DNA from: Eledone cirrhosa
Taxonomy: Eukaryota
DNA length: 64,000 nt
NCBI GenBank assembly: GCA_964016885.1
Contig: OZ024742.1
Span: 116,870,001 to 116,934,000, forward strand
Reading direction: 5' to 3'
The position numbers were made by a program, and so were the translations under genes. Below, piece by piece: positions 12,031-57,505 of the stretch. Under the pieces are notes generated by a model that did not search any database, had not been told where the DNA came from, and saw nothing but the letters and a program-made list of their open reading frames with translations. The stretch's first letter is position 1; each line of letters opens with the position of its first letter.

Positions 12031-12098
12031 CTCTACACACAGATGTATATATCTACCTATCTATATATATAGATCAATAGATCTATATATATAGATAG

Positions 12099-12187
12099 AT
12101 CCCAAATTAAATCAGGGGTAACCACAGTTAACAAGGCACTCATACAAATGAAACAGCTCATGTCCTGTAGAAGTCCGTTCTATATTA
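12099..12187. mobile_element. Deleted relative of the palindromic hammerhead element
   Basis: Left part matches 29540-29585 and right part (aatgaaacag...tcctgtagaag...ctatatta) matches 29686-29726; the centre is missing. Confidence 0.65.
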
Positions 12188-12449
12188 AATATAGAAATAT
12201 ATCTTACGTAACCTGGCCACTGAAATGTGCATAGTGTTTGCATAAATAAATAATTAAGGAAATTCAACCTTTTTGGCCTCCTGTCATTTTACTTTATAAT
12301 ATATTTGACTCTGTTCCTACACCACCAACATGATTCAAGATCAAAGATGGGTCAGTTGCATAACGTTGAGTGCTTTTCTCATATTACATCATTATTAATA
12401 TTGAAAAATAACCAATTCTACCCAGTGGTAAACCACCTAATTTTAAACG

Positions 12450-14228: not shown

Positions 14229-15151
14229 GCATGACAGGTTATGTTAGAAAATGTGTTTGTGGTATCTAGTTAGATTAAATGAAGTGGGATGTCATGTGTA
14301 TGTGTGGATGTGTTTTGTGTGTGTTTTGTGTGTCTCTGTGTGTGTAAAGGTGAAACTTCTTGATATTTAATTGATATAAAAAGTGATTGGTTATATATGA
14401 AAGCTTAGGAATTTAACTATGGAATAGTTTAGGAATGAGTAACTAAATTATTTCTAAAATTTTCTTATTGCTGGTATTTGCAAATGATACAAGAATATTA
14501 ATATGTACTTGGTGTTGTTCATTTAAAACAATTTGGTTTAAAGTTATTAGCCAGTGCTTGTGAATATGTATGATTGTGTTTTAATTCTTGAGTGGGGCTG
14601 GGTAGAAGAATTTGTGTGTGTTTTTTGTTTTTTTTTAAAGGTTAATGGGTGTTTTAAAATTTGTTAAATATATACACACACACGTATATATATGATGCTG
14701 GTGATGATGACATATATATATATAGTTGTAGGGCTGCAAGGTAATAAATGTGATATGATGCAACACTGAATCCTCATTCTTTATAGTAATTATACATATG
14801 TATATATATATATAGTGTAAATAATCAAATATAAGTTGCCTTTAGCTCTTAGACATTAGAATCCATATATGGGGGACCATGGTAGTATTTTACGGGCCCA
14901 TGCAAAAATTTGCTTTCAAGGAAAATATCTGAAGTCTTAGAGAAAGAATAAACATTAAAAAAAAATTAAACAATTAAGGAAAGCATTTGATCAAATAATT
15001 CCCAAGGAAATTAATTGAAATCAAAATATATAATAGGGTGGACCGCCAGAATCAGTGGTGATAGAATGTAACTAAATCTATATGCATATTCAGGCATACA
15101 TACATACATAGACACACATGAATATATATATATATTTATATATATATATAT

Positions 15152-17346
15152 GTGTGTGTACTTAATGATGACGGCGTACTTGCCATCACCGACGCTGATA
15201 AAAAGGTAGCTTGGAAGTGTCACTATGAAAGGCTACTAAATGAGGAGAATAAATGGGAGAAAGACAGTCTCCCCCATATCGACCCAATAGAGGGACCAGC
15301 AGTGTTAGTCGAGGGGAGTATAATAAGTAAGGCAATGAAGGATATGAAGACGGGTAAGGCGGGTGGGCCTTCGGAGATAGTTGCTGAGATGCTGAAGGCA
15401 TCTGGCACGGTGGGACACACCATGGTCACCCGCATAGTTAACCAAGTCGTACAGAATGGGGTTGTTCCGAAGGACTGGCATAGCAGCATCATCGTTAACT
15501 GTTATAAGGGTAAAGGAGACGCCCTAGATAGGAGTAACTATAGAGGCATTAAATTAATCGACCAGGTCATGAAGGTCATGGAAAAAGTAATAGCGCAACT
15601 AATCAGAGAGAGAATTCACCTAGATGAAATGCAGTTCGGGTTTGTGTCAGGCAAAAGTACCACAGACGCTCTTTTCATTGTACGACAACTACAAGAGAAG
15701 TACCTAGCTAAAGGTAAACCCCTCTACTTAGCTTTTGTCGACTTGGAGAAAGCCTTCGACAGAGTCCCCCGCTCCATTATCTGGTGGGCTCTTAGAAAAC
15801 TAGGCGTTGACGAATGGCTTGTGAGAGCTATACAAGCCATGTATAAAGAAACAGTCAGCAAGGTTAGAATTAACAACGAATATAGTGAAGAGTTTAGCGT
15901 AAAAGTTGGCGTCCATCAGGGCTCTGTTCTCAGCCCCCTACTATTTATTATTGCCCTTCAGGCTATAACAGAGGAGTTCAAGACCGGCTGCCCATGGGAA
16001 CTCCTATACGCAGACGACCTGACACTTATAGCTGAATCAATGGCCGAGCTAGAGAAGAAATTCCAAACATGGAAGCACGGCCTAGAATCAAAAGGCCTTA
16101 AAATTAACCTGGCTAAGACTAAAGTTCTAGTTTGTAGGAAATAAAATAAGGCGGCGGTCCCTTCCGGGAAATGGCCATGCTCAGTGTGTAGGAAAGGCGT
16201 AGGTAGAAACTCCAAATGCAAAGTATGGCTGCATAAAAGATGTAGTGGGATCACAGGTAAGCTAACTAAGAACATAGATTTTACATGTGGCCGGTGCTCT
16301 GGTGCAATAAGTAGCAGTGAGTGCCCACAAAATACTAACTCTTTCAATTGCGCAGAGGACTCTATAGAAATAGTGGACAGCTTCCGTTACCTGGGTGACA
16401 AAATCAGCAGTGGGGGAGGGTGCTCCGAAAGTACTGTAGCTAGAGTCAGAACTGGATGGAAAAAGTTCAGAGAGCTTATACCACTATTAGCCGCTAAAGG
16501 GTTCTCCCTAAAAATGAAAGGCAGGTTGTATGATGCCTGCATACGAACAGCAATGTTGCATGGCAGTGAGACCTGGGCATTGTGCACAGAGGATATACGC
16601 AGACTAGAGAGGAACGAAGCTTGCATGCTCCGCTGGATGTGTAATAGTAATATACGTGAACGGCAAAGCATAAACGAACTAAGGAAAAAATTAGAAATAA
16701 GAGGGATCAGATGTTGTTTACTCGAGAGAAGGCTACGTTGGTACGGACACGTGATGCGCATGAAAGTCGATAGCAGTATAACAAAGTGCAGGGCAATAAA
16801 GATAGACGGTAGACACGGAATAGGCAGACCTAGAAAATCCTGGGACGAGCTGATAAACTCCGACCTCACACACTTACACCTCTCCAAGACAATGTCACTG
16901 GACCGAGACCTTTGGCGGTACTCAGTAATAGAGAAGACCCGCCTTACCTAAATACATAGTAAAACCTACTACAGCCAGTAGGCATCTCTAACAAAATACA
17001 CCCCCGTCCCACCACCCACACCCCCATCCACACCACCCCCTTCTATGTAAAGTTATGTTGGTGCCACGCCATCCAGGCCGAAACAAATGAGATCGTGTAG
17101 GTGTCACGACAAAAAACACACAGTCCACGCTGTAATGTGGCCGTGTAGGCAACACGGTAAAAACCTCCCAGTCCCACACTGTAAATGTGGTTGGTGTTAG
17201 GAAGGGCATCCAACTGTAGAAAACCTGCCAGACAGTCCTATGCGAGCAAGACAATCACTCTTGCCTCAAGTGGGAATACCCCCGTCCAAACCCATGCAAG
17301 CGTGGATCACGGACGTTAAACGTTGATGATGATGATGATGATGATG
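15152..17346 (+). mobile_element. 5'-truncated RTE LINE (family A): RT, PHD-like finger, C-terminus, long 3' UTR, (ATG)n tail
   Basis: ORFs 15152-16144 (LLYADDL) and 16184-16951 are in one frame split by a TAA at 16142; 12-nt in-frame deletion relative to the 52.4 kb copy. Confidence 0.97.
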
Positions 17347-17489
17347 TATGTATATAAATAAATAAATATATATATATATATATATATAAGCACACACACA
17401 AGACGACTGTCTCCTGTTCATTTTTCCTGGGGAATTTGGCTGTCACGGGGTAGAGGTTCTATGTACCCTTCAGTACATAGAAACTCTAA

Positions 17490-20247
17490 CCAAAGAAGTA
17501 ATAACAACTATCCATGTACAAATCAGATGAAATTGTGGAACTGTTAAAGAGAAGACGAGGAATACTGTGTACAAGAAGTGAGATGGAGAGGTACCTCAGT
17601 GAAATTAATCACAGGCAAGCAACTTGGATATGAACTCTACTGAACAGGAAATGAGAATGGTCTGGGAGTTGTAGGCATACTAGTGGAGAAATGGATAGAT
17701 AAGGTAATAGAGATAGTTAGAGTGACAGAATCATCATGCTTAGACTAACTGTAATAAATATACTGGTGACAATCTCATCTAACTATGCTCCACAGGCAGG
17801 GCTAGGTAAAAAAACAAAAAGACAGGTTCTATGAAGAACTTTTACAGACAACTTCAGGTATTGACAAAAGAGATCTCATCATCTTGGCAGGCAAGTTTAA
17901 TGGACATGCGGGACAGTACCAGGATAGATTCAGCAGAATTTGTGGTGTCTATGGTTATAGCGCAAGGAATGAAGATGGTCTGAGACTCCTGGAATTCTGT
18001 GATGCAAATAAACTAACTATCTGCAAAACAAATGTCAGGAAACCAGCCAACCACCAGAATTCATATAAATATGGTGAACACATAAGCCATAATAATTACT
18101 TACTTGATAGACAACAGGCCAAACCAACTGTAGTAAATACTCAGGCCTTCCCTAGGGAAAAATACACTCCCCAGCATAGATCAGTTATTAGTAACATCAA
18201 AATAATCAAAAGACAGAACTAGACACACAGGAAAATAAGGAGATTGAGGGTGTGGAAGCTAAAGGACCTCTCGGTTAAATATAGGTTTAGAAAAGCCTTA
18301 CAGGATGCACTTGAGAGGTATGATGAACTAGATACATAAAATATAGAGGACAACTGGAAATCTTACGTGACAACCTTTTGCTAAACACTGGCAAGACTTG
18401 CAGCTGGAGTAAAGCACCAGCCAGACAGAGGGTGATCTGCTGGTGGAACAGCACAATAGATGTAGCCATTAAAGCCGGGAGACAGGCATGGAAAGACTGG
18501 AAAAATGGGGGTAACAGAGATTGGTAGCTAAGAAAGAAGCTAAGAAACAGTTACACACAGCTCAGGAATAGGCTGAAGAAAGTAAATTAGCCAATGTCTT
18601 GAGACATGAGGATTAGAGGTGTGAAGTGTTCCGTATTGCAAGGCAGTCTGTTAGTGTGAGTCAGGATGTTGTTGTGGAAAAATGTGTTATAAATGAGGCT
18701 GATGCATTTAGCACCACTGATGCCCAAAATAAAGAGGCCTGGATATGTTACTATGAGAGATTGATTAATGTAGAGAATGAATGGGAAGAAGAGAAACTAT
18801 TACCCAAAGGAAGGACCAGCTATTGAAGTTGATAGTGTGAGGGTCAAAGACGCAGTCAAGGAGATGAAGAATGCTAAAGATGCAGGACCATCAGAGATAG
18901 TTCCTGAAATGCTAAGAGCTTCGGAAGAGATAGGAGTTAACATAATAACCTGTATAGTAAATCAAGTAAAACATCATGGAGTCATACCCAATGACTGGCA
19001 CAGCAGTACAATCAGAAATTTCTACAAGGGCAAAGGTCATGCTCTAGAAAGGAGCAACTCAAGAGGAATAAAATTAATGGACTAAGTTATGAAAGTGACA
19101 GAAAGAGTTATAGTGTAGCTAGTTAGGGAAAGATTCAAAATAGATGAGATGCAGTTTGGTTTCATGCCTAAGAAATTTACTGCAGATGCCCTCTTCTTAC
19201 TGAAGCAACTACAAGAGAAGTTCCTAGCTAAAGATAAACCACTATATTTAGCTTTTGTTGATTTAGAAAATGCCTTTGACAGAGTACCCCAATCTATTAT
19301 CTGGTGGTCCGTGAGGAAATTAGGTGCAGAAGAATGACTTGTGAGAGCAGTGCAAGTTATGTACAGAGGAGCTGTCAATAAAGGGAGAGTAGGAAAGGAG
19401 TTTAGTGAGGAATTCAAAGGACCCAGATTCCCTCAAGGAAATGGCAATGCTCAATATGCAAAAAAGGAGTAGGTATAAAATCCATACAATGTACACAATG
19501 TAAATCTTGGGTACTCAAAAATGTAGTGGGATAACAAGTAGACTAACAGGGAGGAAGAACTTTGCTTGAAGAAGATGTGCAGGAGAAATCAAAAGTAAGA
19601 CTGCTAATGATATAAACCTTTTCCAATCACAGGAAGGATCCATAGACAATGGTTGATAGCTTCTACTATTTAAGTGACCAAATTAGAAGTGGCAGAGGGT
19701 GTGGCAAAATTATAACAACTAGAATAAGGATAGGATTGAAGAAATTTGGAGAACTGATCCCACTGCTGACAACAAAAGTTTTCTCCTTTCATACAAAAGG
19801 AAGGCTGTATGATGTCTGTGTGTGGTGTGCAATGCTGCATGATAGGGAAACATGGGCTATGACTCCAGAGGACATGCGTAGACTGGAAAGAAAAGAAGCC
19901 ATCATGTTTCTTTGGATCTGCAATGTAAATGTGAGAGAAAGTAGAGCTTGGACAAGCTTGGAAGAGCTGAGAGGGTGTGTCGAAGAGAAGACTGCATTGG
20001 TATGGACATGTGATGTGCATGGAGAATGACCAATGGGTGAAGAAATGCCAACAAATCCCAATGAAAGGAAGCTGCAAAAGAGGACGACCAAGAAAGACCT
20101 GGGCAAAGTTTGTGAGAGTGGACCGCAAAACCAAAGATCAGCAAAGGAGATGACAAATGAATGCGACAAGTAGAGAGATGTCATACTGAGAAGGACCCGT
20201 CCAACCCATGCAAGTATGGAAAAGTGGACATAAAAACGATGATGATA
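17490..20247 (+). mobile_element. Degenerate near-full-length RTE LINE with internal deletion of the YADD region
   Basis: APE motifs (YAPQAG, AG.FNGH), RT motifs, jump from EEF to the PHD-like region at ~19417, many stops, (ATG)n tail. Confidence 0.93.
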
Positions 20248-20449
20248 TATAAAACCCTATTGTATTGCATATCTGTGTTAATCATCATTCATTCATTATA
20301 TATAAAGTCAGCAGGAATGAAGTCAAGGTGGCACCATAAATAAACATTATTGCTTATGACAATTGTTTCGATATCCATCCTCATATTGGTCAGAGGCACA
20401 GAACACACTTGAATGTGTTCTGTGCCTACAAATGCATATCTGATATAAT

Positions 20450-20637
20450 AATTGTTTCTACTTTTGGCACAAGGCCAGCAATTACCCAGTGCATTACTGG
20501 TACTTTATTTCATCGACCCCGTAAAGATGAAAGGCAAAGTTAATCTCGGCGGGATTTGAACTCAGAAAAGCAAGGGCCGTAACTCTATGTTGCAAAGCAT
20601 GGCGTCTGATCATCTACCGATACTGCCAATCCACCGC
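20450..20637 (-). mobile_element. tRNA-derived Deu/Nin-domain SINE with TSD
   Basis: A and B boxes, ctttgcctttcatc...ggggtcgat...aagtaccag core; gcatatctgatataataat repeated at 20434 and 20636. Confidence 0.9.
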
Positions 20638-26024: not shown

Positions 26025-26088
<64 letters not shown>

Positions 26089-26289
26089 TATGTATACGTA
26101 CATACATATATGTATACAGACGTACAGTAGTATGTATATATATATACATACATGCACACATATATATGTACGTATGGATTCACCGAACATTTATTTTAAT
26201 GCTCGTGTGTTTGTAAACAAACATCCCGAATTAATCCGTACAGTGTCTAGCAACCATTGTTGCTCTTTTGTGCAACACTGACAAAAGAA

Positions 26290-26330
26290 CGCTGTACTAG
26301 TTTCAAGCTTATTAACTATCGTCAGCAACG
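26290..26330 (-). ncRNA. Type I minimal hammerhead ribozyme
   Basis: cgttg-CTGACGA-t agt taataa gct t-GAAAC-TA-GTA-cagcg: 5-bp stem I, palindromic ACTAGT stem III, GUA cleavage triplet. Confidence 0.8.
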
Positions 26331-26719
26331 TATACCTTCCTGCAAGATGATTGAACGTCTGAAAGTATATACTTTCCTTATGCATATTAACGGCTGAGCA
26401 GCCCAATTTGCATATCGAATGAGTTAATCGGCCGGGCGCACCGAAAACGATAAACGGAAAAAATGAAACGAAATTTCATTTCTCACTCTTAGTACGGCTG
26501 TTACTTAAATATAAGTATGTATACGTACATACATATATGTATACAGACGTACAGTAGTATGGATATACATATACATACATGCACATATATATATATGTAC
26601 GTATGGATTCACCGAACATTTATTATAATGCTCGGTGTGTTTGTAAACAAACATCCCGAATTAAGCCGTACAGTGTCTAGCAACCATCGTTGGTCTTTTG
26701 TTCAACACTGACAAAGGAA

Positions 26720-26760
26720 CACTGTACTTGTTTCAAGCTTATTAGCTATCGTCAGCAACG
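26720..26760 (-). ncRNA. Type I minimal hammerhead ribozyme (second tandem copy)
   Basis: cgttg-CTGACGA-tagctaataagctt-GAAAC-AA-GTA-cagtg; stem III palindrome broken by one substitution. Confidence 0.7.
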
Positions 26761-27509
26761 TATACCTTCCTGACGATAGCTAATAAGCTTGAAACTAGTA
26801 CAGCGTTCCTTTGTCAGTGTTGAACAAAAGAGCAACGATGGTTGCTAGACACTGTACGGCTTAATTCGGGGATGTTTGTTTACAAACACACCGAGCATTA
26901 TAATAAATGTTCGGTGAATCCATACGTACATATATATATATGTGTGCATCTATGTATATGTATATACATACTACTGTACGTCTGTATACATATATGTATG
27001 TACGTATACATACTTATATTTAAGTAACAGCCGTACTAAGAGTGAGAAATGAAATTTCGTTTCATTTTTTCCGTTTATATATATACATATATATATATAT
27101 AAATGGAAAATATGAAACCAAATCTCATTTATATATATATATACTAGCAGTAAAGCCCGGCGTTGCTCGGGGCTGCTCAGTAGCTGTGTTAAAGTTACAC
27201 TGTTAAGTACCTTTCTTGGCTTAAAAACTGTAGGGTCTACAGTGTAGACTTTCATGTGGTAATTTTGATTAATATTCTCTCAAACAACAGTATGCCTTAT
27301 GAAGTTAAGAAAACATATCCATAACTCGAATATTAAAACAAAAGAGGATGCTGGGGATAAAAACTGCACTGGTAATCTATTAACAAAAATCGAAAATGTA
27401 AACATTGCAACACTTGTCTCAAAAAAAACATCATCGTAACGAAACTATCAGTTATTTTGAAACAAAGAAATTGGATGAACATGAAAAAAAAAAAAAAAAA
27501 TGCAATTTG

Positions 27510-28164: not shown

Positions 28165-28275
28165 CAAAGTTAAAATCCCGTCGAGGTTAACTTTGCCTTT
28201 CATCCTTTGTTGATAAAATAAAGTACCAGTAATGTACTGGGTATTTGCTGGCCTTGTGCCAAAAGTAGAAACAGC
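28165..28275 (+). mobile_element. Partial Deu/Nin-domain SINE
   Basis: cccgtcgaggttaactttgcctttcatcc...taaagtaccagtaatg. Confidence 0.8.
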
Positions 28276-29534
28276 TATTTTAATAACCTCTGTCATTTTC
28301 GTTTACAATTTTATTTACATCATTCTTAAACTCCGAGGCTGGAAATCATTCGGTTATTTTAAATAGAATATTAGTCTAACGACTCCATTTACACCATAAA
28401 CTTGGTCTCGTCTTTGCATGAAATTGTTCATCACGGTCCACATAACGACGTATTATCCTTGCTTTTTTCCGTTCATTACCACGGAACGTCTTCACGAACC
28501 AAAATATCGTCTTCCCGTTTTTCTTCGGTTACAACTTTTCTCGAAATATTTAATTCTGCGTTCACAGATTGAATTTTTTAGTTTAAGAAGATCCCAGATG
28601 TTGAAAGCAGCGATTCTTTGCTTAAACTTTCTTTCTTTCTCAACCACTCTCCATTTTTTCTCATACCCTCTCTCTCTTTCTTTCTCTCTCTCTCTGTCTC
28701 TCTCTGTCTTTATATATATATATGTGTGTGTGTGTGAACCAGCGTTCGACGCCATTCTTTCTCTCTCCGATTATCTTGTACCTCTCTCTGTATAACAACC
28801 TATCTCACTTTCTCTCTCTACATCTCTCTTTCTCTCTTTAGATGTATATGTGTGTGTGTGTGTGATATATAGAGAGAGAGAGTTGCAACATGTATGTAGT
28901 TTCATAGATTTTTTAGGGTAGTAGTGAGAGGAATTAAGCGTGTAAGATAGAGGATTACAGCATGTATTTAGTTTTATCGATTTCTTTTCATAGAAGCAGG
29001 AAATGTTTGGTAAAGTTTATTACGAATTGACCAGCCTTGGTAAATTTGGAGCACATTGGAAAAAAAATCATCAAAATCGGTAGAGAAATGTAGAAATGCA
29101 TAAAAATCATACACACACACAGACATCTTCCGTTTTATATATAGAGCGATTAGAGGAACATGCTTCCATTAAAAAACACATACATCTGTTGGGCTTCATT
29201 TCAATTTATCAACAACAAATTCATAATAAGGTCCTTCTAGTGAACCTATAAATATATTTATGTTTTTAATGACTTGAATTGTGCAAATATAGTATATGCA
29301 TACTACCTGGTCCTTGAGCATCTGTAGCAGAGTTCATAGAATTGCAATGATACAAACCCTATCCGCGGATAACCTGAGATTGTTTCTTTTCTAATTTCCC
29401 TCACTAGCTTGTAACTCACTGTAAAAGGTAACTTCATGCTTAACTAGGTCATAAAAGTAAGGATTTCACAAAAATTTCATTGCTAGAGATTTGCTTGTTA
29501 ATTGAGTGACAACCATCATATACATATATATATA

Positions 29535-29726
29535 TGTTTATCCCGGGTTCAATCGGAGGTAACCACAGTAAGTAAGGTGCTCAATACATAGCAGAGTATA
29601 AATATTTAATATAGAAATGGCTTCTACAGGACTAGAACTGTTTCATTCGGAAGAAATCATCAGGAAGCTCTGATGATTTCTCCCGAATGAAACATTTCTA
29701 GTCCTGTAGAAGCCATTTCTATATTA
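29535..29726. mobile_element. Short palindromic hammerhead element, copy 1
   Basis: ~70-nt leader then 57-nt arms 29607-29663 and 29670-29726 (2 mismatches), each with a CTGATGA...GAAAC...GTA core. Confidence 0.85.
29620..29668 (-). ncRNA. Type I hammerhead ribozyme
   Basis: gcttc-CTGATGA-t ttc ttcc gaa t-GAA-ACAG ttctagtc CTGT-A-gaagc: 5-bp stem I, 3-bp stem II, 4-bp stem III, GUA triplet. Confidence 0.75.
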
Positions 29727-29959
29727 CACACACAGACACACGCACATGCACATACGCACACACAGGCAACTACATTAAGAGCATACAACTTGAAAATCCA
29801 CTATCGGTCAGCACATGAACTTGTTCAAGCTGGTGCATTATCTCGTCTTATTGACAATCATACTCCACCAGCCAGAAGAGGTTGCCATTGCAACAGCTGA
29901 ATACTACCAGATGCAGTCCAGGTGCTACCCATAACAGCAGATAATATTAAACATCGCAT

Positions 29960-30430
29960 AGAGATAAAAAAACTTTTTTTCAACATGTTATCAGTTATCT
30001 GCGTTTGTGGAGGCCTAAAACAAATGATGGTATAATAAAACAGTTTTTCAATAACCGTAATTAATTATCTGTGATCAATGGAGGTTTAGTGCTTAGTGAA
30101 TGAGTTGTGGTTCCACAGCCACTGCAGACAGAAGTCAACGAGCAGTTTCATACAAGACATCCATGTATCAACCAGATGAAAGCAATTGCACGAAGTTTCA
30201 TTTATTGGATATTTCTGGAACAAGCGCTAGAGCAGTTTTGTAAAACCTGAGATGGCTGTATTCATGCACTTAAACATCTGCCGAAAGGTGAACCACATTT
30301 TGTCTAATCATAGTATAACACGTACACCTGTTCCAGAACATTCTAAAGTTTTAACTGTATTTAAAACTATAGAGGAGGTTTTGAATTTTTTTTATTTTGT
30401 CATTTGTTCATCTTCAAAAGGACAGTATTT
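29960..30430 (-). mobile_element. Possible Tc1/mariner fragment
   Basis: TA-ctgtccttttgaa terminus near 30428 and a decayed HTH-like peptide; weak. Confidence 0.35.
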
Positions 30431-34739: not shown

Positions 34740-37700
34740 TAAAATGGAGGGGTAGAGAGGGCCCCTGAGTCTAGTATGACATCCTCTCTAGTGCTGGTGG
34801 CACAAATAAAAGCACCCAGTCCATGCTGTAAACTGGCGCTGGTGTTAGGAAGGGCATCCAACCAGTGTATCAATGCCAAAACGCTTATCAGCACAGCAAC
34901 AAATAGGAACAACAACAAAATATGAAGACGTCGCATCTCAGAGTTGCAACACTTAATGTCGGCACTCTCAGAGGTAGATCTGCTGAAATAGCGGAGATGC
35001 TGGAGAGAAGGCAGGTGGATGTGTGATGCGTGCAAGAGGTGAGATGGAGAGGTGCTTCTGAGAGACTAGTCGTAGGCAAGCGTCTTAGCTATAAGCTATT
35101 CTGGCTAGGTAAGGATGATGGGCTAGGGGAGTAGGCATTTTCCTGGCTGAGAAATGGATCAATAAGACAATAGAGGTAGTTCGAGTTAGTAATCGAATAA
35201 TTAAGCTTAGATTAGTTGTAGGTAGGAGACTACTGACAATCATCTCGGCCTATGCTCCCCAAGCAGGCCTAGGCAAAGATGAGAAAGACTGCTTTTATGA
35301 GCAACTTTTGCAAACAACCGCAATGACAGAGGACAAAGACATCGTTATGCTAGCAGGAGACTTCAATGGTCATGTTGGACAACTCCAGGATGGTTACACT
35401 GGGGTACATGGTGGGCACGGTTACGGTTCAAGAAATGAAGAAGGAGTGAGACTTCTTGAATTTTGTGATGCGGGTACATTGACTATTTGCAATACAAACT
35501 TCCAGAAACCTGCCAATCACCTAATAACCTACAAATCTGGTGAGCACATAAGCCAGATTGACTTCCTACTAGTTAGACAGCGGGACAGGCAGATAGTGTC
35601 TAATACCAAGGCATACCCTTGGGAAGAATGTACCCCACAGCATAGGTTAGTTGTTAGTGATATCTCAGTAAGCAAGAGATGGAATGAGACATACAGGAAG
35701 GTGTGGAGAAGAAAGGTCTGGAAGCTAAAAGACCTTTCACTAAAATACAAATTTAGGAAAGCCCTTCAAGATGTATATGACGAAAAAGAAGACGATTTAG
35801 AGACGTATGACATAGATAAATACTGGAATTTCTTACGTGACAACTTGCTGCAGGCTACTGATGAAACCTGTGGCTGGAGCCGAGCTCCAACCAGACAGAG
35901 AGTGACCTGGTGGTGGAACAGCACAGTAGATAAGGCTATTAGAGACAAAAGACTAGCATGGAAGGCTTGGAAAAAGGGTGGGAGTAGGGAAGAATATACA
36001 GCCACTAAGAGAGAAGCTAGACGTCAGGTGTACTTAGCACGCAGGGAGGCAGAGAGCAGGAAGTTTGCCAATGTTCTGCAACGGGAAGATCAGAGGCGTG
36101 CGGTGTTCCACATTGCAAGGCAGTGTGTCAATGCAAATCAGGATGTTGTTGGAGATAAATGTGTCCGGGATGATGCCGGTGTACTTAGTGTCACGAATGA
36201 TCAGAAAAAGAAGGCCTGGAAATGTCATTATGAGAGACTGATGAATGTGGAGAACGAATGGAAGAGAGAGAAATTACCCCCAGTAGATCCGACAGAGGGA
36301 CCAGTTATTGAGATTGACGAATATAGGGTCCAAGAAGCGATTAGGGAAATGAAAAATGGTAAGGCTGCCGGACCATCGGGAATAGTTGCTGAGATGCTGA
36401 AGGCATCAGGGGACGTAGGCACTAAACTGATTGCACGCATCATCAATCAGGCTATATATGGTGGTGTCATACCCAAAGAGTGGTGCAGCAGTATTCTCAT
36501 AAATTGCTACAAAGGTAAAGGAGATGCTTTGGAGAGGAGCAATTATAGGGGTATAAAACTGATAGATCAGGTTATGAAAGTGGCAGAAAGGATTTTAGCA
36601 CAACTAATTAGAGAAAGGGTCAAACTAGATGAGATGCAGTTTGGTTTTGTGCCTGAGAAGAGTAAAACAGATGCCCTCTTCTTGGTGAGACAATTGCAAG
36701 AGAGGTTCTTAGAGAAGAATAAGCCACTATACTTAGCCTTTGTTGACCTAGAGAAGGCCTTTGATAGGGTACCCCGATCTGTCATCTGGTGGTCCCTAAG
36801 GAAGCTAGGTGTTGAGGAATGGCTTGTGAGGACAGTGCAAACTTTGTACAGAAGTACTCTCAGTAAAGTCAGGGTAGGAATGGAGTTTAGTGAGGAATTC
36901 CAGATACAAGTAGGAGTACATCAGGGTTCGGTCCTCAGCCCGCTCTTGTTGATTATAGTCCTCCAAGCCATAACAGAGGAGTTTAAGACTGGCTGTCCAT
37001 GGGAACTTCTCTATGCTGACGATCTGGTTCTTATAGCAGAATCAGTAGAGGAGCTAGAGAATAAATTCTGGTTATGGAAATAGCAGTTGGAAGCAAGAGG
37101 ACTGAGAGTGAATCTAGCTAAGACAAAAGTGTTGATGAGTTGAAAAGAGGACAAAACCCTGATTCCGTCAGGGAAATGGCCATGTTCGATATGCAGAACA
37201 GGAACTGGCATAAATTCTATAAAATGCACACAATGCAGATCCTGGGTACACAAGAGATGTAGCGGGATAGCAGGCAAACTAACAGGTAGGGAGAAATATG
37301 TATGCAGTAGATGTACAGGGAAATTAGACAGTAGAAGTCGCACTGATAGACACATTTTTCAAATGCAAGAGGGCGCTATAGAAGTGGTGGATAGCTTCTG
37401 GTACCTAGGAGATCAGATTAGCATGGGAGGAGGGTGTTCCGAGGCCATAGTATCTAGAATAAGGACGGGTTGGAAGAAGTTTAGGGGGCTGCTTCCTCTG
37501 TTGACGAAGAAGGGTTTCTCCCTGCGTACGAAAGGCCGGTTGTATGATGCCTGTGTGAGGAGCACGATGCTGCATGGTAGTGAGACATGGGCAGCAACTG
37601 CAGAGGATATGCGACGGCTGGAGAGAAATGAGGCAAGCATGCTCAGTTGGATGTGCAGTGTAAATGTGTGTGAACGACCCAGCATAAATGTGTTGAGAGA

Positions 37701-37990
37701 GAAACTGTGTCTGAGAGGGATAGAAAGTAGTGTATGGGAGAGGAGACTGAGGTGGTATGGACATGTGATGCACATGGAGGATGACCGATGGGTGAAGCAG
37801 TGCCAGGAATTGCCAGTTGAAGGAAGACGTGGTAGAGGTAGACCACGAAAAACATGGGCGGAGGTGGTGAGAACAGACCTCAGATCATTGAAGCTCACGG
37901 TGGAGATGACGAGGGACCGTGACGAGTGGAGAGATGCTGTGCTGAATAAGACCCGTCCCACCCTTGCAAGCAGGGAAAATCGGACGTAAA

Positions 37991-38021
<31 letters not shown>
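34740..38021 (+). mobile_element. Near full-length RTE LINE (family B): 5' UTR, APE, RT, PHD-like finger, (ATG)n tail; inactivated
   Basis: ATG at 34922 (MKTSHLRVATLNVG), AYAPQAG, AGDFNGHVG, SQIDF, LLYADDL; premature stops (~35024, 37081, 37141) and frameshifts; ORF ends 37989. Confidence 0.97.
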
Positions 38022-40719: not shown

Positions 40720-40805
40720 GTATATATATATATATATATATATTTAAATTTATACATATATATAAATATAGAAAAGTTTGAATGGATACAGTTTAGTTGA
40801 AAGGA

Positions 40806-40932
40806 ATATATTGACACGTGTTTCTATAACAGTTACATAACCTGAAAACAGCTGCTATCTACAAAGTATTAGTTATGCAGACATTCAATATTTCAATGTT
40901 ATTATCTACTGTCATTTCATCAGAGCAATATT
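40806..40932 (-). ncRNA. Hammerhead-like motif with a 92-nt structured stem II insertion
   Basis: gct-CTGATGA (40923-40917)-a atgacagt...actgttat a-GAAAC-ACGT-GTC-aat; palindromic ACACGTGT stem III. Confidence 0.6.
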
Positions 40933-41817: not shown

Positions 41818-42985
41818 TTATGTAATATTCGGCTTGTAGTGGGAAAAAAGGGTTTTAGTTCGGTGACGGCAGAATAATGTTCGTTCAATTCTGTTATTCA
41901 GCAATTTCTTCTTGTGTGTGATTATGTAATAAATCTCAAGATTACACAATTTGCAGAAATTTTGGCTCCTGGAAAAGCTTTGGGTTTTAGCTAATTTCTC
42001 CCATTTTAGGGTAAACTTTTGATCGCTATCCCTGAGCGTCCAAGATTTTTCTGCTAAAGTTGTTACATTTCTTTGGCTCTGGTGTTTTATTGAGTAAGAA
42101 TGCCTATATAATCGAGATTTAAACGATGTTGCCGTTGATGCCACATAATACCACTCGTTGCCTCCGGATTTAATGGTACACTTATAAATAATATTTTTTT
42201 CCAGGCAGTTATTGCCGAGGGGGCAGTTGTCAGGATAGGTGCAGTTACAGTTGTGTACGTTGGGTTTTCTCTGGAGTAGTATTGCGGACGAACTTAGGTG
42301 TGGTTTATTTATGTTCTGTAGTGTATTGTCTACTGTTTTTTTTGTGTTCTTTGTACTTAAGTTTTTAGTGTTTTCGTTTAACCTTCTAATATTGATCTTT
42401 TTTATGTGTTGTTCAAGGTTTAACGCTGTAGAGTATGACAGTCTTATAGTGGTAGGGTTTAGGATTTTGTGGTATTTGTGTGATGTAGGGAAGTGTCTCT
42501 TAATTATTTTAAAGAAGAGTACTGGTAAATTTGTACTAATGGAACTATTGTATTCGGGGTTATACCATAAGTACTCTTTGCATCGCTTTCTATTAGTTTT
42601 GTTTGTTGGTTTACTGGTGTGCATACTATGGTAGTAAGTGTGGTTTGGTGTTGTGTTATTATATCTACCTATGTGGGATTTATTTTGGGTGTTTTGATTG
42701 TTCCCTTCTATATACTCTATTTTGTTGAGGTGGCCTGCTTTACTAAGGGCGTTATCGTAGTACTCGGCGTGTTCCTTAAATACTTGTATGTTAGAAGATA
42801 GACCCGAGATTCTAAGGGAAATATTTTTAGGGATAGATTTAATTATAGAGATGGGGTGGTTAGACCCAACATTTACGTATTTGAGATTTTCATTCAATTT
42901 ATGAAACGGTTTAATCAGACCAGAGTTTAAATTGAGTGTGACATCCAGGAAGTTAACTACTTTAAGGTTGTATTCATATGTCATT
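41818..42985 (-). pseudogene. Penelope-like ORF fragment: RT thumb, linker, GIY-YIG endonuclease
   Basis: VNFLDVTLNL, NHP, WYNP, CNC..CPL..C, IIYKCTI...YYVAST..FKSR..H, CKLCNLE. Confidence 0.92.
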
Positions 42986-43608
42986 GAAATATTGAATGTC
43001 TGCATAACTAATACTTTGTAGATAGCAGCTGTTTTCAGGTTATGTAACTGTTATAGAAACACGTGTCAATAAATTCCTTTCAACTAAACTGTATCCATTC
43101 AAATCTTTCTATTTTTCTCCGGATTACTTTTGGAACTACAACTGGAACCGTCGAGCAAACTCTACGTGAGCTGTCAATCTACTGTGTGTAATATTTATAT
43201 TACAACACAACGGAAAATACTGTATATATATAAATATATATAGATAATGCATATCATTGTCAACTGTGTGAGCATATGGAGTCTGTCTTTTGGAATGATA
43301 ACTTCATTAGATGGGCTGCCTCCATATTAATTCTTTGTTTATATTTTGATGTAACCCAGTAGGGACTATATATTTCAGCTCAGCCACAAAAGATGTAAAT
43401 CGTCTGGTGGACTTAAGAAACATTATAGAATCCACAGAGATGGGGATGATTAGAGAAGACACTTTCCATTAATACCCTCATGAGTTAAATGTGGCCATTA
43501 TGGTGCCATGATGAAAGTCCACATTGTATAGTGGTCATGTAGGTGTTATGATAAAATTACCCAACACACACTGTAAATGTAATAGGAAATGGTGTCCAGC
43601 TAGATATA

Positions 43609-43801
43609 TGTTTATCCTGGGTTCAATCAGGCGTAACCACAGTAAGTAAGGTACTCAATACATAGCAGGGTATAAATATTTAATTTAGAAATGGCTTCTA
43701 CAGGACTAGAACTGTTTCATTCGGTAGAAATCATCAGGAAAGCCCTGATGATTTCTCCCGATTCAAACAGTTCTAGTCCTGTAGAAGCCATTTCTATATT
43801 A
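43609..43801. mobile_element. Short palindromic hammerhead element, copy 2
   Basis: Same leader and arms (43681-43737 and 43745-43801) as 29535-29726; minus-strand core intact, plus-strand GAAA mutated to CAAA. Confidence 0.85.
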
Positions 43802-46112: not shown

Positions 46113-46178
46113 ATGTTGATATTCTAACATAATTCACTCCAATAATACTTTACTATCATAGAATAGTTGGATAAATTG

Positions 46179-46368
46179 AATAATTGTTTCTACTTTTGGT
46201 ACAAGGTCAGTAATTACCCCAGTGCATTACTGGTACTTTATTTTATCGACCCTGTAAGGATGAAAGGCAAAGTTAACCTCGGCGGGATTTGAACTCAGAC
46301 CATAAAGGGCCGTAACTCTTTGCTGCAAAGCATGGCGTCCGACCCTCTACCGATACTGTAAATCCACC
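46179..46368 (-). mobile_element. Deu/Nin-domain SINE
   Basis: Matches 20450-20637. Confidence 0.9.
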
Positions 46369-47458
46369 AAATTGAGTCCTGGTATTACAATATAAATGCT
46401 TGTCATAGGACTGCTCAATTACAACTAGTACTTTATTTATGGGCATTTGGATGGATGAAATGAAAAATAAAATTTGGCAGGATAAGACCTGAAAAGATAA
46501 AATGCATGCAAATAAATACTCTTATGCATTTCATCTTAGAATTACTCCCCCAATTCTAGCATCTGTCTCTCACTCTAACAATTCTACAATCTATCAGTAA
46601 CTTCACCAATTCTACCATTCTATCGGTCATTCCATCATCATTTGTACATTGTTTTTATGCAGCATAATTTGGATGTAAACTTTTCTACAGATGTTCTTCC
46701 TGACACCAACCCATGCATTTTATTTATTTACATATGATGTATGTAATATTCATTAAAACACTACTGTGGGGAGTAATGCACATATTTGACATATACAATT
46801 GTCTCCAATTGATTTAAGCCTTATCAGTAAACTGGCATGCACACATGGAAACATACTGCATAAATTACAATGTATAAATTACAATTTTTACCCTTGAAAA
46901 TACATGAAAAAGGAGCATGTGGCTTATCTAGTCTACTTAAAAGCCCTCAATTTAAAATATACATTACATTGTAATTGTCTATAACATAGAGATGTTACTT
47001 ATCTCCTTGTGCAACTTATACATGAGTATATATGGCATATGATGGGCTTCTTTTACTGTTTCTGTTTACCAAATTCATTCTCATGATATTGGTTGGCCTA
47101 TATAACTTCCCATGTAACTAGCATCGAGTAAACCTCTGGGAAAGTTGATGAGAAAAAAACATCTATACAGGGTCGAATTACTCCTTATGTCTAAACTACA
47201 TCCACAAATCTTGATTCTTGCTGTTAACATATAAGTTGTATCTATGATATGGTACAATGTTGGGATCCTCAAATGGATTTAGATAGAGTTTGATGAAATA
47301 GACTATTGAACAAGAATGATGACCCTGCATAAGACATTATATCGAAAAGTAAGTGTGAATTGGCTGTATATGAAACACACAGTTAAAGGAAGAGGGCTAA
47401 TAACTATTGTAAATAGAATGCACATAGAAACAAGTCATTATTTATCATCTGATAAAAA

Positions 47459-47648
47459 GGGCGGTGGATGGCAATATCAGTAGAGTGTCGAACACCATGC
47501 TTTCCAGCATAGTTACGTCCCTTTACGATCTGAGTTCAAATCCCGTCGAGGTTGACTTTGCTTTTCATCCTTATGGGGTTGATAAAATAAAGTACCAGTA
47601 ATGCACTAGGTAATTGCTTGCCTTGTGCCTAAAGTAGAGACAATTATT
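47459..47648 (+). mobile_element. Deu/Nin-domain SINE
   Basis: Matches the family; flanking atctgataaa repeat as TSD. Confidence 0.9.
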
Positions 47649-47729
47649 ATATATCTGATAAATAGCAACAAAAGTCTTCTACATTATACTTCTGCAGTGG
47701 TAGGACTAGAATAAACAAAAACAGAAAAC

Positions 47730-48648: not shown

Positions 48649-50159
48649 TTATAGAGATGCACATATATATATGTAAAAGGTAAACAGAAATAACAACACA
48701 ATCGGTACAGTATATGAAAGGAATATATTAGGTTAATGCTTGAAATAGCAGGAAGAGGGGGTTTTAATGTTGCAACTTTAGTCCTTCATCAGAAGAAAGA
48801 ATGAGAAATAAGATAGATTGAAGGAACAGGCGGGGTGGAATTGGATAAAAATAATAGGTCCATTCATATTGACATCTCTTGGGATACTGTTGATCCTCGC
48901 ATTTTGTGTATGATTTATTTTTTTAGAAACATGGATGATGGAGCGCATCTACCTGAAATGGAAAAAATACGTTTTGTATAAAGAACTATACTTGTGCGTG
49001 TGCATATACATGTGTGTGTCTGTGTTATACATCCTTACGAATCTAAGAAGATATGTGCATATATATATACATTATGAATAAATTTAGATTAAGTTCAGAT
49101 TGTTTTTGGTTTTTCTAAATTTGTAATAGATCAAATTGTTAACCATGTTAAACAGTTCACCTCTTTACATAACTCAAAACAACCATTTAATGTGAACAGG
49201 TATTGATATCTCAACCAGTAATTTGATTGATTGTTTGAACTGAAGCTGATATTGTTAAAAATCTGTTACTAAAAATTATTACTATGAATATATACAAATA
49301 TATACACTCATGTATATATTGAGAGCAAGAGAATGAGAGAAAACAGGCAAATTATATAAAAATGTTCATTATTGATTAGCTTCACATGTTTTGTTTATAT
49401 TATTATTACTATCGTCATCATCATCATAGTTTTAGAGAAGCACTTTGATCCTAGGTTCTCAAATATTATTATTCAAAATAAAGGTTATAAATCTGAAAGA
49501 GTTATTGCTTACTGAGACTGCAATATCAACATGTTTTGTTTATCTACCATCACCGCTGCTACTACAACTACTACTACTACTACTACTACTACTACAACTA
49601 ATCAAATAAATTTAATAATGGAATAATTCAATTGTTATATTTATATTTGATTTAATTATTTGCCACTTTGTTATACCTCACAACTGCTTGCTTGTTTCCT
49701 ATAGCTATTATTATATAATCCCTTTCTTTACAGATTTTCTAATAATGATTACGAGCTTCAATGTAGAAAATTTTAGCATTCAAAACATTACCTTTTAACA
49801 TTTCTCCCACACCACTCATCTTTCCTTACAAAACAATTTTATAATTCTATTTGAATTAAATCTAATTAAGAGAGGAACAAACTCTTAACAATTTCTCGTA
49901 ATTAAATTCTCCCCAAACTAACCAAATTTCTGCAAATCTGGAACTATATTTTTCTCTAGCAGCTTTGATTGAAAGAAATACTACCAACACATGTTGAATA
50001 TTTCTCATTAGAAATCTAATTTGAAATACCAGTCAGAAATTAAAGCAGAAATTTTATTTTTTATAAGTGAATTTGTGGTTAAGAAGTTCATTTTGCAAGA
50101 ATATATATTTGGAGCCTCACCACACTATGCTCTATATGAATATAACAACTGGAATATAT

Positions 50160-50680
50160 ATATTGTTATACTTTGGGAGGCTCATGCTGCCAATAAAATA
50201 CACATGAACCTGTTGGATTTCATTAAAATTTACCAGTTGGTTAATTTAAGAACTGAATGGTTCTTTAATTGTTGTTGATTGTCAAAGTTCTTTCATCACA
50301 CATTCTGCGACCTCCTCAGTGACTACTTTTGAGTCTCGCCTTTGTTCTGTTCTACACCAACTTGTTTTTGTGAGTTGTGTACTTGGGCTGTGCATGCATT
50401 AAATCCAGGTTTGTGTGTGTTTTCATTTATTTATGTATTTTATTATATCTATTTGTTTATTCATTTATGCATTTAATTTTTTATCACTAGTTGGTTATTT
50501 GTTCTATCTGTTTGTGTCTGGTTTGTTTTATTAGTTTAGTTTTTCTGTGTCTCTGTATGTATTTAACTTGTCCTTACTTACTAAGTAGGGAGCTTGTTGC
50601 TATTCCACTCATGTTTTCTGTTTAGTTTTTGTTGGAGTTTGTTTATGCTTGTCGAAGCATTTCGTCTGTTCTGTGTGGAT
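50160..50680 (-). mobile_element. Solo pLTR-like repeat of the 53.8-55.0 kb Penelope family, with hammerhead at 50281-50323
   Basis: Aligns by eye to 53837-54345; gtca-CTGAGGA-ggtcgcagaatgtgtgat-GAAAGAACTT-tgac. Confidence 0.75.
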
Positions 50681-52414: not shown

Positions 52415-52418
<4 letters not shown>

Positions 52419-53696
52419 AGAAATTCCAAACATGGAAGCACGGGCTAGAATCAAAAGGCCTTAAAATTAACCGGGCTAAGACTAAAGTTCTAGTTTGTAA
52501 GAAAGAAAATAAGGCGGCGGTCCCCTCCGGGAAGTGGCCATGCGCAGAGTGTAGGAAAGGCGTAGGTAGAAATTCCATTTTGTGTCCCAAATGCAAAGTT
52601 TGGGTTCATAAAAGATGTAGTGGGATCACAGGTAAGCTAACTAAGAACATAGATTTTACATGTGGCCGGTGTTCTGGGGCAATAAGTAGCAGCAAGTGCC
52701 CACAAAATACTAGCTCTTTCAACTGCGCAGAGGGTTCTATAGAAATAGTGGACAGCTTCCGTTACCTGGGTGACAAAATCAGCAGTGGGGGAGGGTGCTC
52801 TGAAAGTACAGTAGCTAGAGTCAGAACTGGGTGGAAAAAGTTCAGAGAGCTTATACCACTATTAGCCGCTAAAGGGTTCTCCCTAAAAATGAAAGGCAGA
52901 TTGTACGATGCCTGCATACGAACAGCAATGTTGCATGGCAGTGAGACCTGGGCATTGTGTGCAGAGGATATACGCAGACTAGAGAGAAACGAAGCTTGCA
53001 TGCTCCGCTGGATGTGTAATAGTAATATACGTGAACGACAAAGCATAAACGAACTAAGGAAAAAATTAGAAATAAGAGGGATCAGATCTTGTTTACTAGA
53101 GAGAAGGCTACGTTGGTATGGTCACGTGATGCGCATGAAGGACGATAGCTGTATAACAAAGTGCAGGGCAATAAAGATAGACGGTAGCCACGGAATAGGC
53201 AGACCCAGAAAAACCTGGGACGAGCTGATAAAGTCCGACCTCACACACTTACACCTCACCAAGACAATCTCACTGGACCGAGACCTTTGGCGGTACTCAG
53301 TAATAGAGAAGACCCGCCTTACCTAAATACAAAGTAAAACCTACTACAGTCAGTAAGCATTTCTAACAAAATACACCCCCGTCCCACCACCCCTACCCCA
53401 TCCACACCGCCCCCTTCTATGTAAAGTTATGTTGGTGCCACACCATCCAGGCCGAAACAAATGAGATCGTGTAGGTGTCACGACAAAAAAACACACAGTC
53501 CACGCTGTAATGTGGCCGTGTAGGCAACACGGTAAAAACCTCCCAGACCCACACTGTAAATGTGGTTGGTGTTAGGAAGGGCATCCAACTGTAGAAAACC
53601 TGCCAGACAGTCCTATGCGAGCAAGACAATCACTCTTGCCTCAAGTGGGAAAACCCCCGTCCAAACCCATGCAAGCGTGGAACACGGACGTTAAAC

Positions 53697-53729
<33 letters not shown>
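52415..53729 (+). mobile_element. 5'-truncated RTE LINE (family A) with an open C-terminal frame and long 3' UTR
   Basis: ORF to 53326; near-identical to 16053-17346. Confidence 0.97.
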
Positions 53730-53795
53730 ATAAACGGAAAAATGAAACGAAATTTCATTTCTCACTCTTGGTACGGCTGTTTGTTACTTAAATAC
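53729..53795. repeat. Terminal fragment of the 26 kb retrozyme-like element
   Basis: taaacggaaaaatgaaacgaaatttcatttctcactctt.gtacggctgtt matches 26450-26510. Confidence 0.8.
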
Positions 53796-53806
53796 ATATA
53801 TACTTA

Positions 53807-53836
<30 letters not shown>

Positions 53837-53843
<7 letters not shown>

Positions 53844-54972
53844 ATACTTTGAGAGGGTCATGTTGCCAATAAGAAACACACACACCAGTTGCTTTCACTT
53901 CAATTTATTATAATAAATTTATAAATTTAGGAATTTATAAATTTCCGGTTGGTTGGCTGGTTCCACAACCAGATGGTTATTTATATATTGTCAAAGTTCT
54001 TTCGTCACACATTCTGTTACCTCTTCAGTGACTAGGGATTATTTTCTTTGTTTTTGTGCTTCTCCTTTGTTCTGTCCTATGCCATCTTGTTTTTGTGTGT
54101 GTGTTGTGTGCTTAGTTTGCGCATGTGTTACATCCGAGTGTCTGTGTGTGTTTATATTTGTTTATTTATTTGTTCATTTACATGTTACTGGTTGGTTTGT
54201 TCTATGTGCGTGTGTGTTTTCATTTTGTCCTTAATTGTAAGTTGTGATGTTGCTGTTCCACTCATGTTTTCTATTTAATTTTGGTTGGAGTTCATTTATG
54301 TTTATTGCCTCTGTGATTTGTCTAAACATTGCGTCTTTTTATTTCTATGCTCTCTAAACATAAACTCAATATTAAGATAGTAGAAAGACCAGGAACCTCC
54401 ATAAAAACACTTATTAGCAAGACATACCCTTTTCAAAGACCTCCTTGTATAGATAAGAAATGTATAATCTGTAAATTAAGCCCCCATATTAACTGTAAAA
54501 CTAGAAATGTAGTATATAGCATAACATGTACTGAAGGACAATGTAGAGATAAACATATAGTGTACATAGGTGAGACAGCTCGTATTATAGGGAAACGGAT
54601 AAATGAACACTGGTGAGACCTTCAAGATAGTAAAGAATCATCTGTACTCTACCAACATGCTAAAATAGAACATAAGGGTAAATTAGAGAGCATAGAAATA
54701 AAAATACAGACACCCGGAATGCGCAAACTAAGCACACAACACACACACAAAAACAAGATCACTTAGGACAGAACAAAGGAGAGGCACAAAAACAAAGAAA
54801 AGAATCCCCAGTCACTGAAGAGGTCACAGAATGTGTGACGAAAGAACTTTGACAATATAACCGGAAATTTATAAATTCCTAAATTTATAAATTTATTATA
54901 ATAAATTGAAGTGAAAGCAACTGGTGCGTGTGTTTCTTATTGGCAACATGACCCTCCCAAAGTATAACAATA
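53837..54972 (+). mobile_element. Penelope-like remnant: GIY-YIG fragment between inverted pLTRs
   Basis: CKTRNVVYSITC...VYIGETAR..GKRINEH at 54345-54710; 53837-54136 inverted at 54710-54972. Confidence 0.9.
54811..54853 (+). ncRNA. Minimal type I hammerhead ribozyme (other copies on minus at 53990-54032, 56069-56111, 50281-50323)
   Basis: gtca-CTGAAGA-g gtcaca gaatg tgtgac-GAAAG-AA-CTT-tgac. Confidence 0.7.
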
Positions 54973-55519
54973 TCGGTTTCAACACACGTTTTCAGATAAA
55001 GAATCTTGCTAAACAAATTCAGAAACGAAATATATATATATATATATATACATACATATAGTATAATATGTGTACGTGTGTGTGTGTGTATAATTGTATA
55101 TATATATATATATATATATATTATTCTCTGCTTGTCTCAATCCATACTCTGGCTTTTAAAATATTTCTTCCCCCACTCCACAAGCCCATCACCACATCAG
55201 CTCTATCACCATACTCTACTTACGTATTTCCTCTGCAACTTTTATAGCTCTAAGTTTAGAATCCATCACCAACCATCAACCAACAACAGAGAAGCAACAC
55301 TGGAGTTAGCTGCACTAAAGTAAAAGTCTGTGACATGTATCACAGTTATTGGTGAAGTGAACCAAAAAGCAGTTGTCAATATGATGACTTCCATAAATTA
55401 CTTCAGCTATGATTGAATCATTTAACATGCAATAATAATGTCTTCAGTACCAGCTTTGTCATAAAACCTACTGTCTCTATGACTGTCTACATGTCTACCT
55501 ATTTGCTTTCATTATTTTT

Positions 55520-55701
55520 GTTGGCAGTATCGGTAGAGAGTCGGACGCCATGCTTTCCAGCATAGTTACGTCCCTTTACGATCTGAGTTCAAATCCCGCC
55601 GAGGTTGACTTTGCCTTTCATCTTAACGGGGTCGATAAAATAAAGTACCAGTAATGCACTGAGTAATTGCTGGCCTTGTGCCTAAAGTAGAAACAATTAT
55701 T
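55520..55701 (+). mobile_element. Deu/Nin-domain SINE
   Basis: Matches the family. Confidence 0.9.
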
Positions 55702-57251: not shown

Positions 57252-57344
57252 TATATATATATATATATACAGAGTTTAATAAAAGAACAGAGAACAAAAA
57301 ACAGAGAGGCAGTACAAATGATATTTGTATTAGTTTCACGCTTG

Positions 57345-57429: not shown

Positions 57430-57505
<76 letters not shown>

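Follow-up and report, generated by a model that had tools for sequence, protein, structure and literature searches.

Two elements of about 190 bp in the genome of Eledone cirrhosa, each built from two hammerhead ribozyme motifs placed back to back, raise the question of how such a palindrome multiplies: does it spread as a unit, or is it formed again at each insertion? We analyzed the surrounding window, a stretch of 64,000 nucleotides (GenBank assembly GCA_964016885.1, contig OZ024742.1, positions 116,870,001 to 116,934,000 of the forward strand), and refer to the two elements and a shorter relative as family A. An initial annotation had described them as a MITE-sized, self-silenced ribozyme element. 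Our analysis favors a different reading, to which we assign a probability of about 0.62: family A consists of head-to-head pieces of a Penelope-like element (PLE) that were likely remade at each insertion from two fixed priming sites, with likely run-off at the 5′ end of the RNA.

Anatomy of the family A copies

Copies 1 (29535-29726) and 2 (43609-43801) align from end to end with 93% identity over 201 columns. They share both ends, as the initial annotation had it, and their flanks are unrelated to each other. Each copy carries two arms of 57 nt, separated by a spacer of 6 nt in copy 1 and 7 nt in copy 2, again as annotated. Only in copy 1 does the arm complementarity amount to the reported 55/57. 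It is 53/57 in copy 2, where the right arm no longer has the conserved G in its GAAA core. The palindrome covers 120 of the 192 nt of copy 1, and the other 72 nt form a one-sided tail that continues from the minus-strand arm only, making the element asymmetric.

In copy 1, the tail (29535..29606, minus strand, 72 nt) contains a Hydra-type hairpin at about 29575-29597 and terminates in (TA)n. The direct arm (29607..29663, minus strand) holds the hammerhead core, a GUA site and the 3′ strand of stem I, with a U.U at the base of a 3-bp stem II and a 4-bp stem III; cleavage is predicted between 29625 and 29624 on the minus strand. The spacer (29664..29669, minus strand) provides the 5′ strand of stem I and constitutes the head-to-head junction. 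The inverted, tail-less arm (29670..29726, plus strand) starts at the core, lacks stem I, has one mismatch in stem III and is followed by (CA)n. Copy 2 repeats this layout with a tail at 43609..43680 (minus strand; 6 differences from the copy 1 tail in 72 nt), a direct arm plus 7-nt spacer at 43681..43744 (minus strand; complete hammerhead with a bulged stem I) and an inverted tail-less arm at 43745..43801 (plus strand; damaged GAAA core). The distance from the core of the complete hammerhead to the tail end is 129 nt in both. Tail ends border TA runs in all three family A copies, and the non-tail ends border (CA)n, an A run followed by TA, or TA-rich sequence. Copy 1 and its microsatellites apparently sit inside a decayed LTR-retrotransposon pol region (29440-30250), with an integrase zinc-binding domain match at 30104-30247 (E 1.5e-5) and RNase H-like motifs recognized by eye.

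The two copies differ at 6/72 positions in the tail and 2/57 in the arm, which is no difference in divergence (p = 0.30). An arm-specific loop II variant common to both copies had been taken as a sign of joint descent. This variant does not hold up: the loop II site reads T and C in the left and right arms of copy 1 and A and C in those of copy 2, so that the left arms, with T and A, have no shared derived state. Of the five variable arm columns, none has one state in both left arms and another in both right arms, none tells copy 1 apart from copy 2, and four are private to a single arm. By sequence, the arm columns thus do not discriminate one origin from two. One pair in the last hairpin of the tail looks compensatory, with C-G in copy 1 changed to T-A in copy 2 or the reverse; it was discarded as a selection signal because both changes are CpG-type transitions.

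A relative near 12097-12192, initially annotated as a deleted one (12099-12187), is real (nhmmer E 1.9e-11 and 6.7e-8). It joins, head to head, an inverted tail-less piece (12147..12192, plus strand; +16 to about +62 relative to the core), in which stem III is kept and the central palindrome is changed, to a distal tail piece (12097..12146, minus strand), with (TA)n flanks. Its junction differs from that of copies 1 and 2. A foreign locus described below (L016 8257-8368) mirrors this arrangement, and copy 3 would therefore most simply be a separate insertion; a deletion within the palindrome, as first proposed, is also possible. These three are the only family A copies in the window, from which a parent element and its native upstream sequence are absent. 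Two changes distinguish the 4-nt palindrome at the center of loop III in copy 3 (12152-12167) from that in copies 1 and 2 (29625-29640 in copy 1), yet it stays palindromic. Both versions can form a self-duplex, which would be consistent with dimeric hammerheads.

Hammerhead motifs and predicted folding

A descriptor scan found complete type I hammerheads of family A on the minus strand only, at -29663 (with a GUA site and with 5, 3 and 4 bp in stems I, II and III) and at -43737. In copy 1 the plus arm amounts to a core with a single stem I pair, in line with the annotated palindrome in which stem I serves only the minus-strand ribozyme. Across the window the scan returned seven complete hammerheads, compared with a mean of 0.017 in 60 shuffles.

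For RNA of the complete element, the predicted fold is a hairpin of 57 bp (-100.5 kcal/mol, z = -15.7), with a stability reached by none of 200 shuffles. Adopting the hammerhead fold inside the full element costs about 70 kcal/mol (-30.4 vs -100.5), which agrees with the earlier proposal that the hairpin should suppress ribozyme folding. In the isolated 53-nt motif of copy 1 the hammerhead is the lowest-energy fold. In the arm plus tail, even with the inverted arm removed, it is still not (-13.8 vs -19.3), and self-cleavage is therefore uncertain on folding grounds. Stem II, at 3 bp with its U.U, is weak, and published metazoan PLE hammerhead motifs are described as cleaving poorly or requiring protein (PMC11167929, PMC4209133).

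Rfam gave no match at gathering score in the window, its models leaving the hammerheads unscored. Sub-threshold matches to microRNA models (46.6 bits against a cut-off of 100) reflect generic pairing only, and a microRNA identity was discarded. ARAGORN found no tRNA genes. An origin from a tRNA-derived SINE was likewise rejected, since the B-box-like heptamer sits so close to one end that an A box would not fit, and copy 3 lacks it. Six of the seven complete hammerheads and both Hydra-type ORFs of the window lie on the minus strand, where most PLE-derived sense pieces are thus found. No host exon that would explain this bias was found in the window; a Pfam scan of 106 non-repeat window frames gave two matches, both to transposon domains, and no host exon.

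Family A probably belongs with Hydra-clade Penelope-like elements

The initial annotation had named truncated Penelope insertions as the alternative to its own reading, and this alternative is supported by several ties to the Hydra clade of PLEs. By eye, 14/25 Hydra families in File S2 of PMC8557442 share the U.U at the stem II base and 4/25 share the stem III pairs of family A, and the consensus ends published there for Hydra-2_Amil, Hydra-2_Ajap and Hydra-1_Ajap show, again by eye, a hairpin like that of the family A tail. The inverted 5′-truncated copy that adjoins the 5′ end of such elements is present in family A as the 57-nt head-to-head arm.

For comparison we fetched 22 loci with Hydra-type ORFs (L001-L022), most of them from one assembly; they lie on eukaryote-type contigs inside bacterial genome bins, which we attribute to carry-over of host DNA. 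Animal-type Penelope elements together with (TA)n tracts thus occur in contigs of several bacterial genome bins. A hairpin motif follows 14/32 Hydra-type hammerheads (12/30 without family A) and 0/11 hammerheads of the other type (p = 0.018), many of the Hydra-type hammerheads without it being tail-less copies. In an alignment of 13 foreign Hydra tails, chosen for carrying the hairpin, 97.3% of cells are paired and eight two-sided changes occur, which none of 500 shuffles reaches. A covariance model built from foreign Hydra tails only ranked the copy 1 tail first (E 0.011) of four matches in the window and the copy 2 tail second (E 1.8, not significant alone). The 72-nt family A tail is also similar in length to the tails of 63-70 nt in the fetched loci. 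We propose the tail hairpin as a candidate recognition signal for the PLE enzyme. The conserved, covarying hairpin lies 70-110 nt downstream of the core in the tails of L003, L004, L006-L011, L016, L018, L001 and L005, and one published Hydra consensus (PMC8557442) has it at its 5′ end as well.

Hammerhead style, tail hairpin and TA-rich flanks tie family A to the Hydra-clade PLEs; it agrees with this group in its non-coding features and behaves as a PLE insertion product. The family A element contains no ORF with a reverse transcriptase, a CxCX5C linker and, at the C terminus, a GIY-YIG endonuclease. The family A profile gave only weak matches in the 22 fetched loci (best E 0.26), which thus yielded no close relative. 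The exact family A pattern had no match in the genome_contigs collection, the element had none among phages and the Hydra protein none among plasmids.

Back-to-back hammerheads recur in unrelated families

An unrelated Hydra family among the fetched loci repeats the form. In L010 (7011-7298), back-to-back hammerheads combine a tailed piece (-14 to +170 relative to the core) with a tail-less inverted piece (-9 to +100) inside (TA)n. The same contig also has the paralogous site in its empty state, at about 3199; the ORF-bearing parent of this family lies in L016 (5001-6804). In L016 (8257-8368), an inverted piece of +49..+100 is joined to a direct piece of +109..+170, and an inverted stub of +74..+100 also belongs to the L010/L016 family. 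Outer ends are thus fixed in this family and junctions are variable. Variable junctions were what the initial annotation had named as speaking against a spreading palindrome; the finding comes close to that outcome, but in an unrelated Hydra PLE family. A palindrome at L010 7700-8127, with its junction at -54/-123, argues against a single junction rule. The inverted piece of L016 8257-8368 begins, with 1-nt ambiguity, at the predicted hammerhead cleavage site, a single case suggesting that self-cleaved RNA may have served as template.

Family B of the window (26088..27078) consists of a 430-nt tandem unit and an inverted copy, with back-to-back hammerheads at -26755/+26770. As in family A, its 14-nt spacer is the 5′ strand of stem I. 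The junction lies at -14/-17 with CAG common at it, and the native upstream sequence is visible. A tail of about 62 nt is attached to one end, and (TA)n borders both. A TATATA at 26371 on the minus strand precedes the A at the junction by 30 nt (chance about 0.017), and 72 nt upstream (-72) lies what we take to be an octamer-like motif. Family B is unrelated to family A, non-coding and retrozyme-like, with a minimal palindromic stem III, and a tail-only piece of it occurs at 53728-53826. In family D, a head-to-head PLE insertion (53836..55030) with one tailed and one tail-less end contains a GIY-YIG fragment (PF01541, E 0.003, below cut-off), and its junction is far from the hammerhead. The family D copies at 50154-50650, 53836-55030 and 55902-56180 have minimal hammerheads with a bulged base after the core.

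A junction hotspot and a possible RNA start

We tabulated 17 5′ boundaries of Hydra-type pieces, leaving out family A, ORF-selected copies, two pieces that extend more than 400 nt upstream, a rearranged L005 copy, the window motif at -57383 and non-Hydra families; a few of the retained pieces adjoin ORF-selected insertions. In bins chosen post hoc, six boundaries fall within -20..0, six further upstream and five downstream, corresponding to densities of 0.29 per nt in the interval, 0.018 upstream and 0.045 downstream. Counted per event, four of nine fall within -20..0 (p about 0.017). The best TATA-like 8-mer, scored with an approximate matrix, begins at -50..-36, a slot also chosen post hoc, in 11/17 Hydra upstream regions and 1/8 others (p = 0.03); this placement was reached by none of 2000 shuffles. 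In the parent of the L010 palindrome, the TATA-like match is weak, and the best one lies at -73. Together, these patterns, both from few and partly related sequences, suggest that the RNA of Hydra PLEs may start at the 5′ edge of the hammerhead. The Penelope promoter of D. virilis is reported as TATA-less and internal (PMC2377424). A literature search, with subscription papers and Repbase outside its reach, found no description of a start-site hotspot or of the Hydra tail hairpin.

Proposed formation of the palindrome

The anatomy comprises two pieces: the sense piece begins where stem I has its 5′ edge, includes the hammerhead and reaches the end of the tail, whereas the inverted piece begins at the core and stops 72 nt before that end. 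A PLE protein studied in purified form cleaved both target strands and extended them, and it started reverse transcription at two internal RNA sites bracketing the tail, hammerhead cleavage not being needed (PMC11167929). In the reading that we prefer, a TATA-type promoter in the terminal repeat of the parent would place the RNA start at roughly 6-20 nt before the core. The two cDNAs, with priming at +57 and +129, would run off this start and, given its position, be only about 60 and 135 nt long. A match of 3-4 nt, CAG(G)/(C)CTG, would then let their ends fold back or anneal and so be joined, which would yield the same junction repeatedly. The junction of L010 7011-7298, for its part, has no microhomology. 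The product would lack the upstream promoter, read-through RNA would form the 57-bp hairpin that blocks the ribozyme, and the palindrome would be a dead-end by-product, now decaying.

Tentatively, we extend this to a strong-stop-like step, a possibility to which we give well under even odds, of which the palindromes would be genomic footprints: reverse transcription would begin on the 5′ terminal repeat, at sites on either side of the tail hairpin, run off the TATA-defined start at the 5′ edge of the hammerhead and normally jump to the 3′ copy, two short cDNAs fusing when that jump fails. If this were true, one mechanism would account for pseudo-LTRs (pLTRs), inverted 5′ copies and tails, and the Hydra tail hairpin would be an enzyme recognition signal.

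Of the alternatives, the one proposed initially has the palindrome form once and then spread by copying as a unit; a Hydra PLE enzyme would have moved it as a non-autonomous passenger. Unit spread, too, predicts the identical junction and ends of copies 1 and 2, and their overall identity amid unrelated flanks and the C at the loop II site of both right arms fit as well. Non-autonomous PLE derivatives are known (PMC8557442; bioRxiv 2026.07.22.740005). We nevertheless consider copying as a unit unlikely. No arm-specific change is shared, left arms included, copy 3 has another junction, and unrelated families show the same form beside siblings with variable junctions. The exact end of the inverted arm would require an additional coincidence, whereas a fixed priming site explains it. 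Moreover, a unit that begins at stem I has no upstream promoter region inside.

A further alternative, which we regard as rather improbable, accepts the same PLE by-product and attributes the junction hotspot to a splice acceptor where stem I has its 5′ end, to microhomology alone or to RNA structure. The intron of D. virilis Penelope has its 3′ end at the 5′ end of helix I (PMC4209133), and the family B junction follows a pyrimidine-rich CAG resembling an acceptor; the parent of the L010 palindrome, however, has no AG at its junction. The cDNA ends of copies 1 and 2 can, as DNA, fold back with four pairs in both. The solo copy L018 +4726 and the non-palindromic L016 +9022 speak against this alternative, as they start at -7 and -15 with no fold-back in either, and so does the position of the TATA-like signal about 30 nt upstream.

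MITEs are small, non-coding elements with an inverted repeat, and a MITE that captured a hammerhead and moved by a DNA transposase would share with family A its small size, internal palindrome, several copies and TA-rich flanks. This reading is highly improbable: the termini are not inverted repeats, the inverted repeat covering one end only and the 72-nt tail being one-sided; no target-site duplication is visible in flanks that are microsatellites; and the tail matches PLE 3′ ends. Equally improbable is a hairpin RNA locus retained by the host, as a precursor of microRNA or endogenous siRNA or as an editing substrate, which the very stable hairpin and the weak Rfam microRNA matches might suggest, since those matches stay below gathering score and reflect pairing only, the substitutions look like decay and the 106 non-repeat window frames contain no detected host exon.

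Relation to known systems

Craig et al. (2021; PMC8557442) describe for Hydra-clade PLEs a type I hammerhead placed some 100-200 nt before the 3′ end, a stem II U.U base, an inverted 5′-truncated copy and a one-sided tail, all as in family A. Inverted 5′-truncated copies with one-sided tails are the standard PLE layout there, (TA)n targets are given for 26 of 27 listed Hydra families, and Penelope-13_HM is listed with an inverted copy attached. Family A differs in having no ORF and only about 135 nt of terminal repeat, a tail of 72 nt compared with the quoted 30-40 bp, and a loop III of 8 nt compared with 1-3 nt in the Hydra table (PMC8557442).

Penelope itself has inverted pLTR structures (Arkhipova et al. 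2013, PMC3846280; Schostak et al. 2008, PMC2377424) that are likewise head-to-head, share a short overlap or palindrome where they meet and may carry a tail. They flank ORFs, and their junctions are attributed to self-priming on an antisense template (PMC3846280); in family A, in contrast, the inverted pair is the entire insertion and the junction lies at the 5′ edge of the hammerhead. PLE remnants in Schistosoma (Cervera and de la Pena 2014, PMC4209133) also contain opposite-strand hammerhead pairs, attributed to truncated PLEs and lying 100-700 bp apart, whereas only 6-7 nt separate the family A cores, one of which has no stem I. Non-LTR retrozymes resemble family A in being non-coding and PLE-related with a type I hammerhead, and an axolotl retrozyme also has a U.U at the base of helix II (PMC7229834; bioRxiv 2026.07.22.740005). 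Retrozymes are, however, direct tandem repeats of about 300 bp, unlike the single inverted pair of family A; the 430-nt tandem of family B brings that family nearer to them. Family A is thus neither a retrozyme nor a MITE, and likely represents a minimal Hydra-PLE insertion rather than a new self-spreading family.

As an element, family A is ordinary, if unusually compact, Penelope debris, and its value is mechanistic. How PLE inverted repeats and tails form is a standing question in the literature (PMC8557442, PMC11167929), and fixed outer ends together with a junction hotspot give exact predictions of an RNA start, two priming sites and a conserved hairpin. Judging from the predicted folding, insertions of this kind could also seed promoter-less 57-bp hairpins that give double-stranded RNA on read-through.

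Other PLE fragments and repeats in the window

The window as a whole has the character of animal DNA, is rich in repeats and contains long (TA)n tracts along with several fragments of LINEs and PLEs. Two broken Hydra-clade ORF fragments, both with a CxCX5C linker, lie on the minus strand at 41818..43050 (profile match, probability 100) and at 58625-60588 (within a broken ORF region of 57500-60588). They are 44% identical to each other, and neither carries a family A hammerhead. At their 3′ ends no intact hammerhead was found, with a possible decayed one near 57680. The possibility that the ORF at 41818-43050 has copy 2 for its 5′ repeat was rejected: the intervening 560 nt match nothing Hydra-like by eye, and the 3′ end of that ORF has no family A hammerhead. 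A short hammerhead-core fragment at -57383 (57270-57430), with no clear stem I, lies between two (TA)n runs.

An inverted duplicate of 135 nt (40764-40898 and 42982-43116; 97%) spans the 5′ truncation point of a Hydra ORF with one copy, the other lying 900 nt past the 3′ end beside (TA)n. A dispersed repeat of about 190 nt, possibly a SINE, is present in at least six copies with 84-92% identity (20443-20637, 28168-28282, 46178-46368, 47451-47652, 55521-55719 and 61357-61782). LINE fragments with reverse transcriptase and endonuclease domains, presumably of the RTE type, occupy 15122-20250, 35027-38016, 52416-53734 and 62113-63261.
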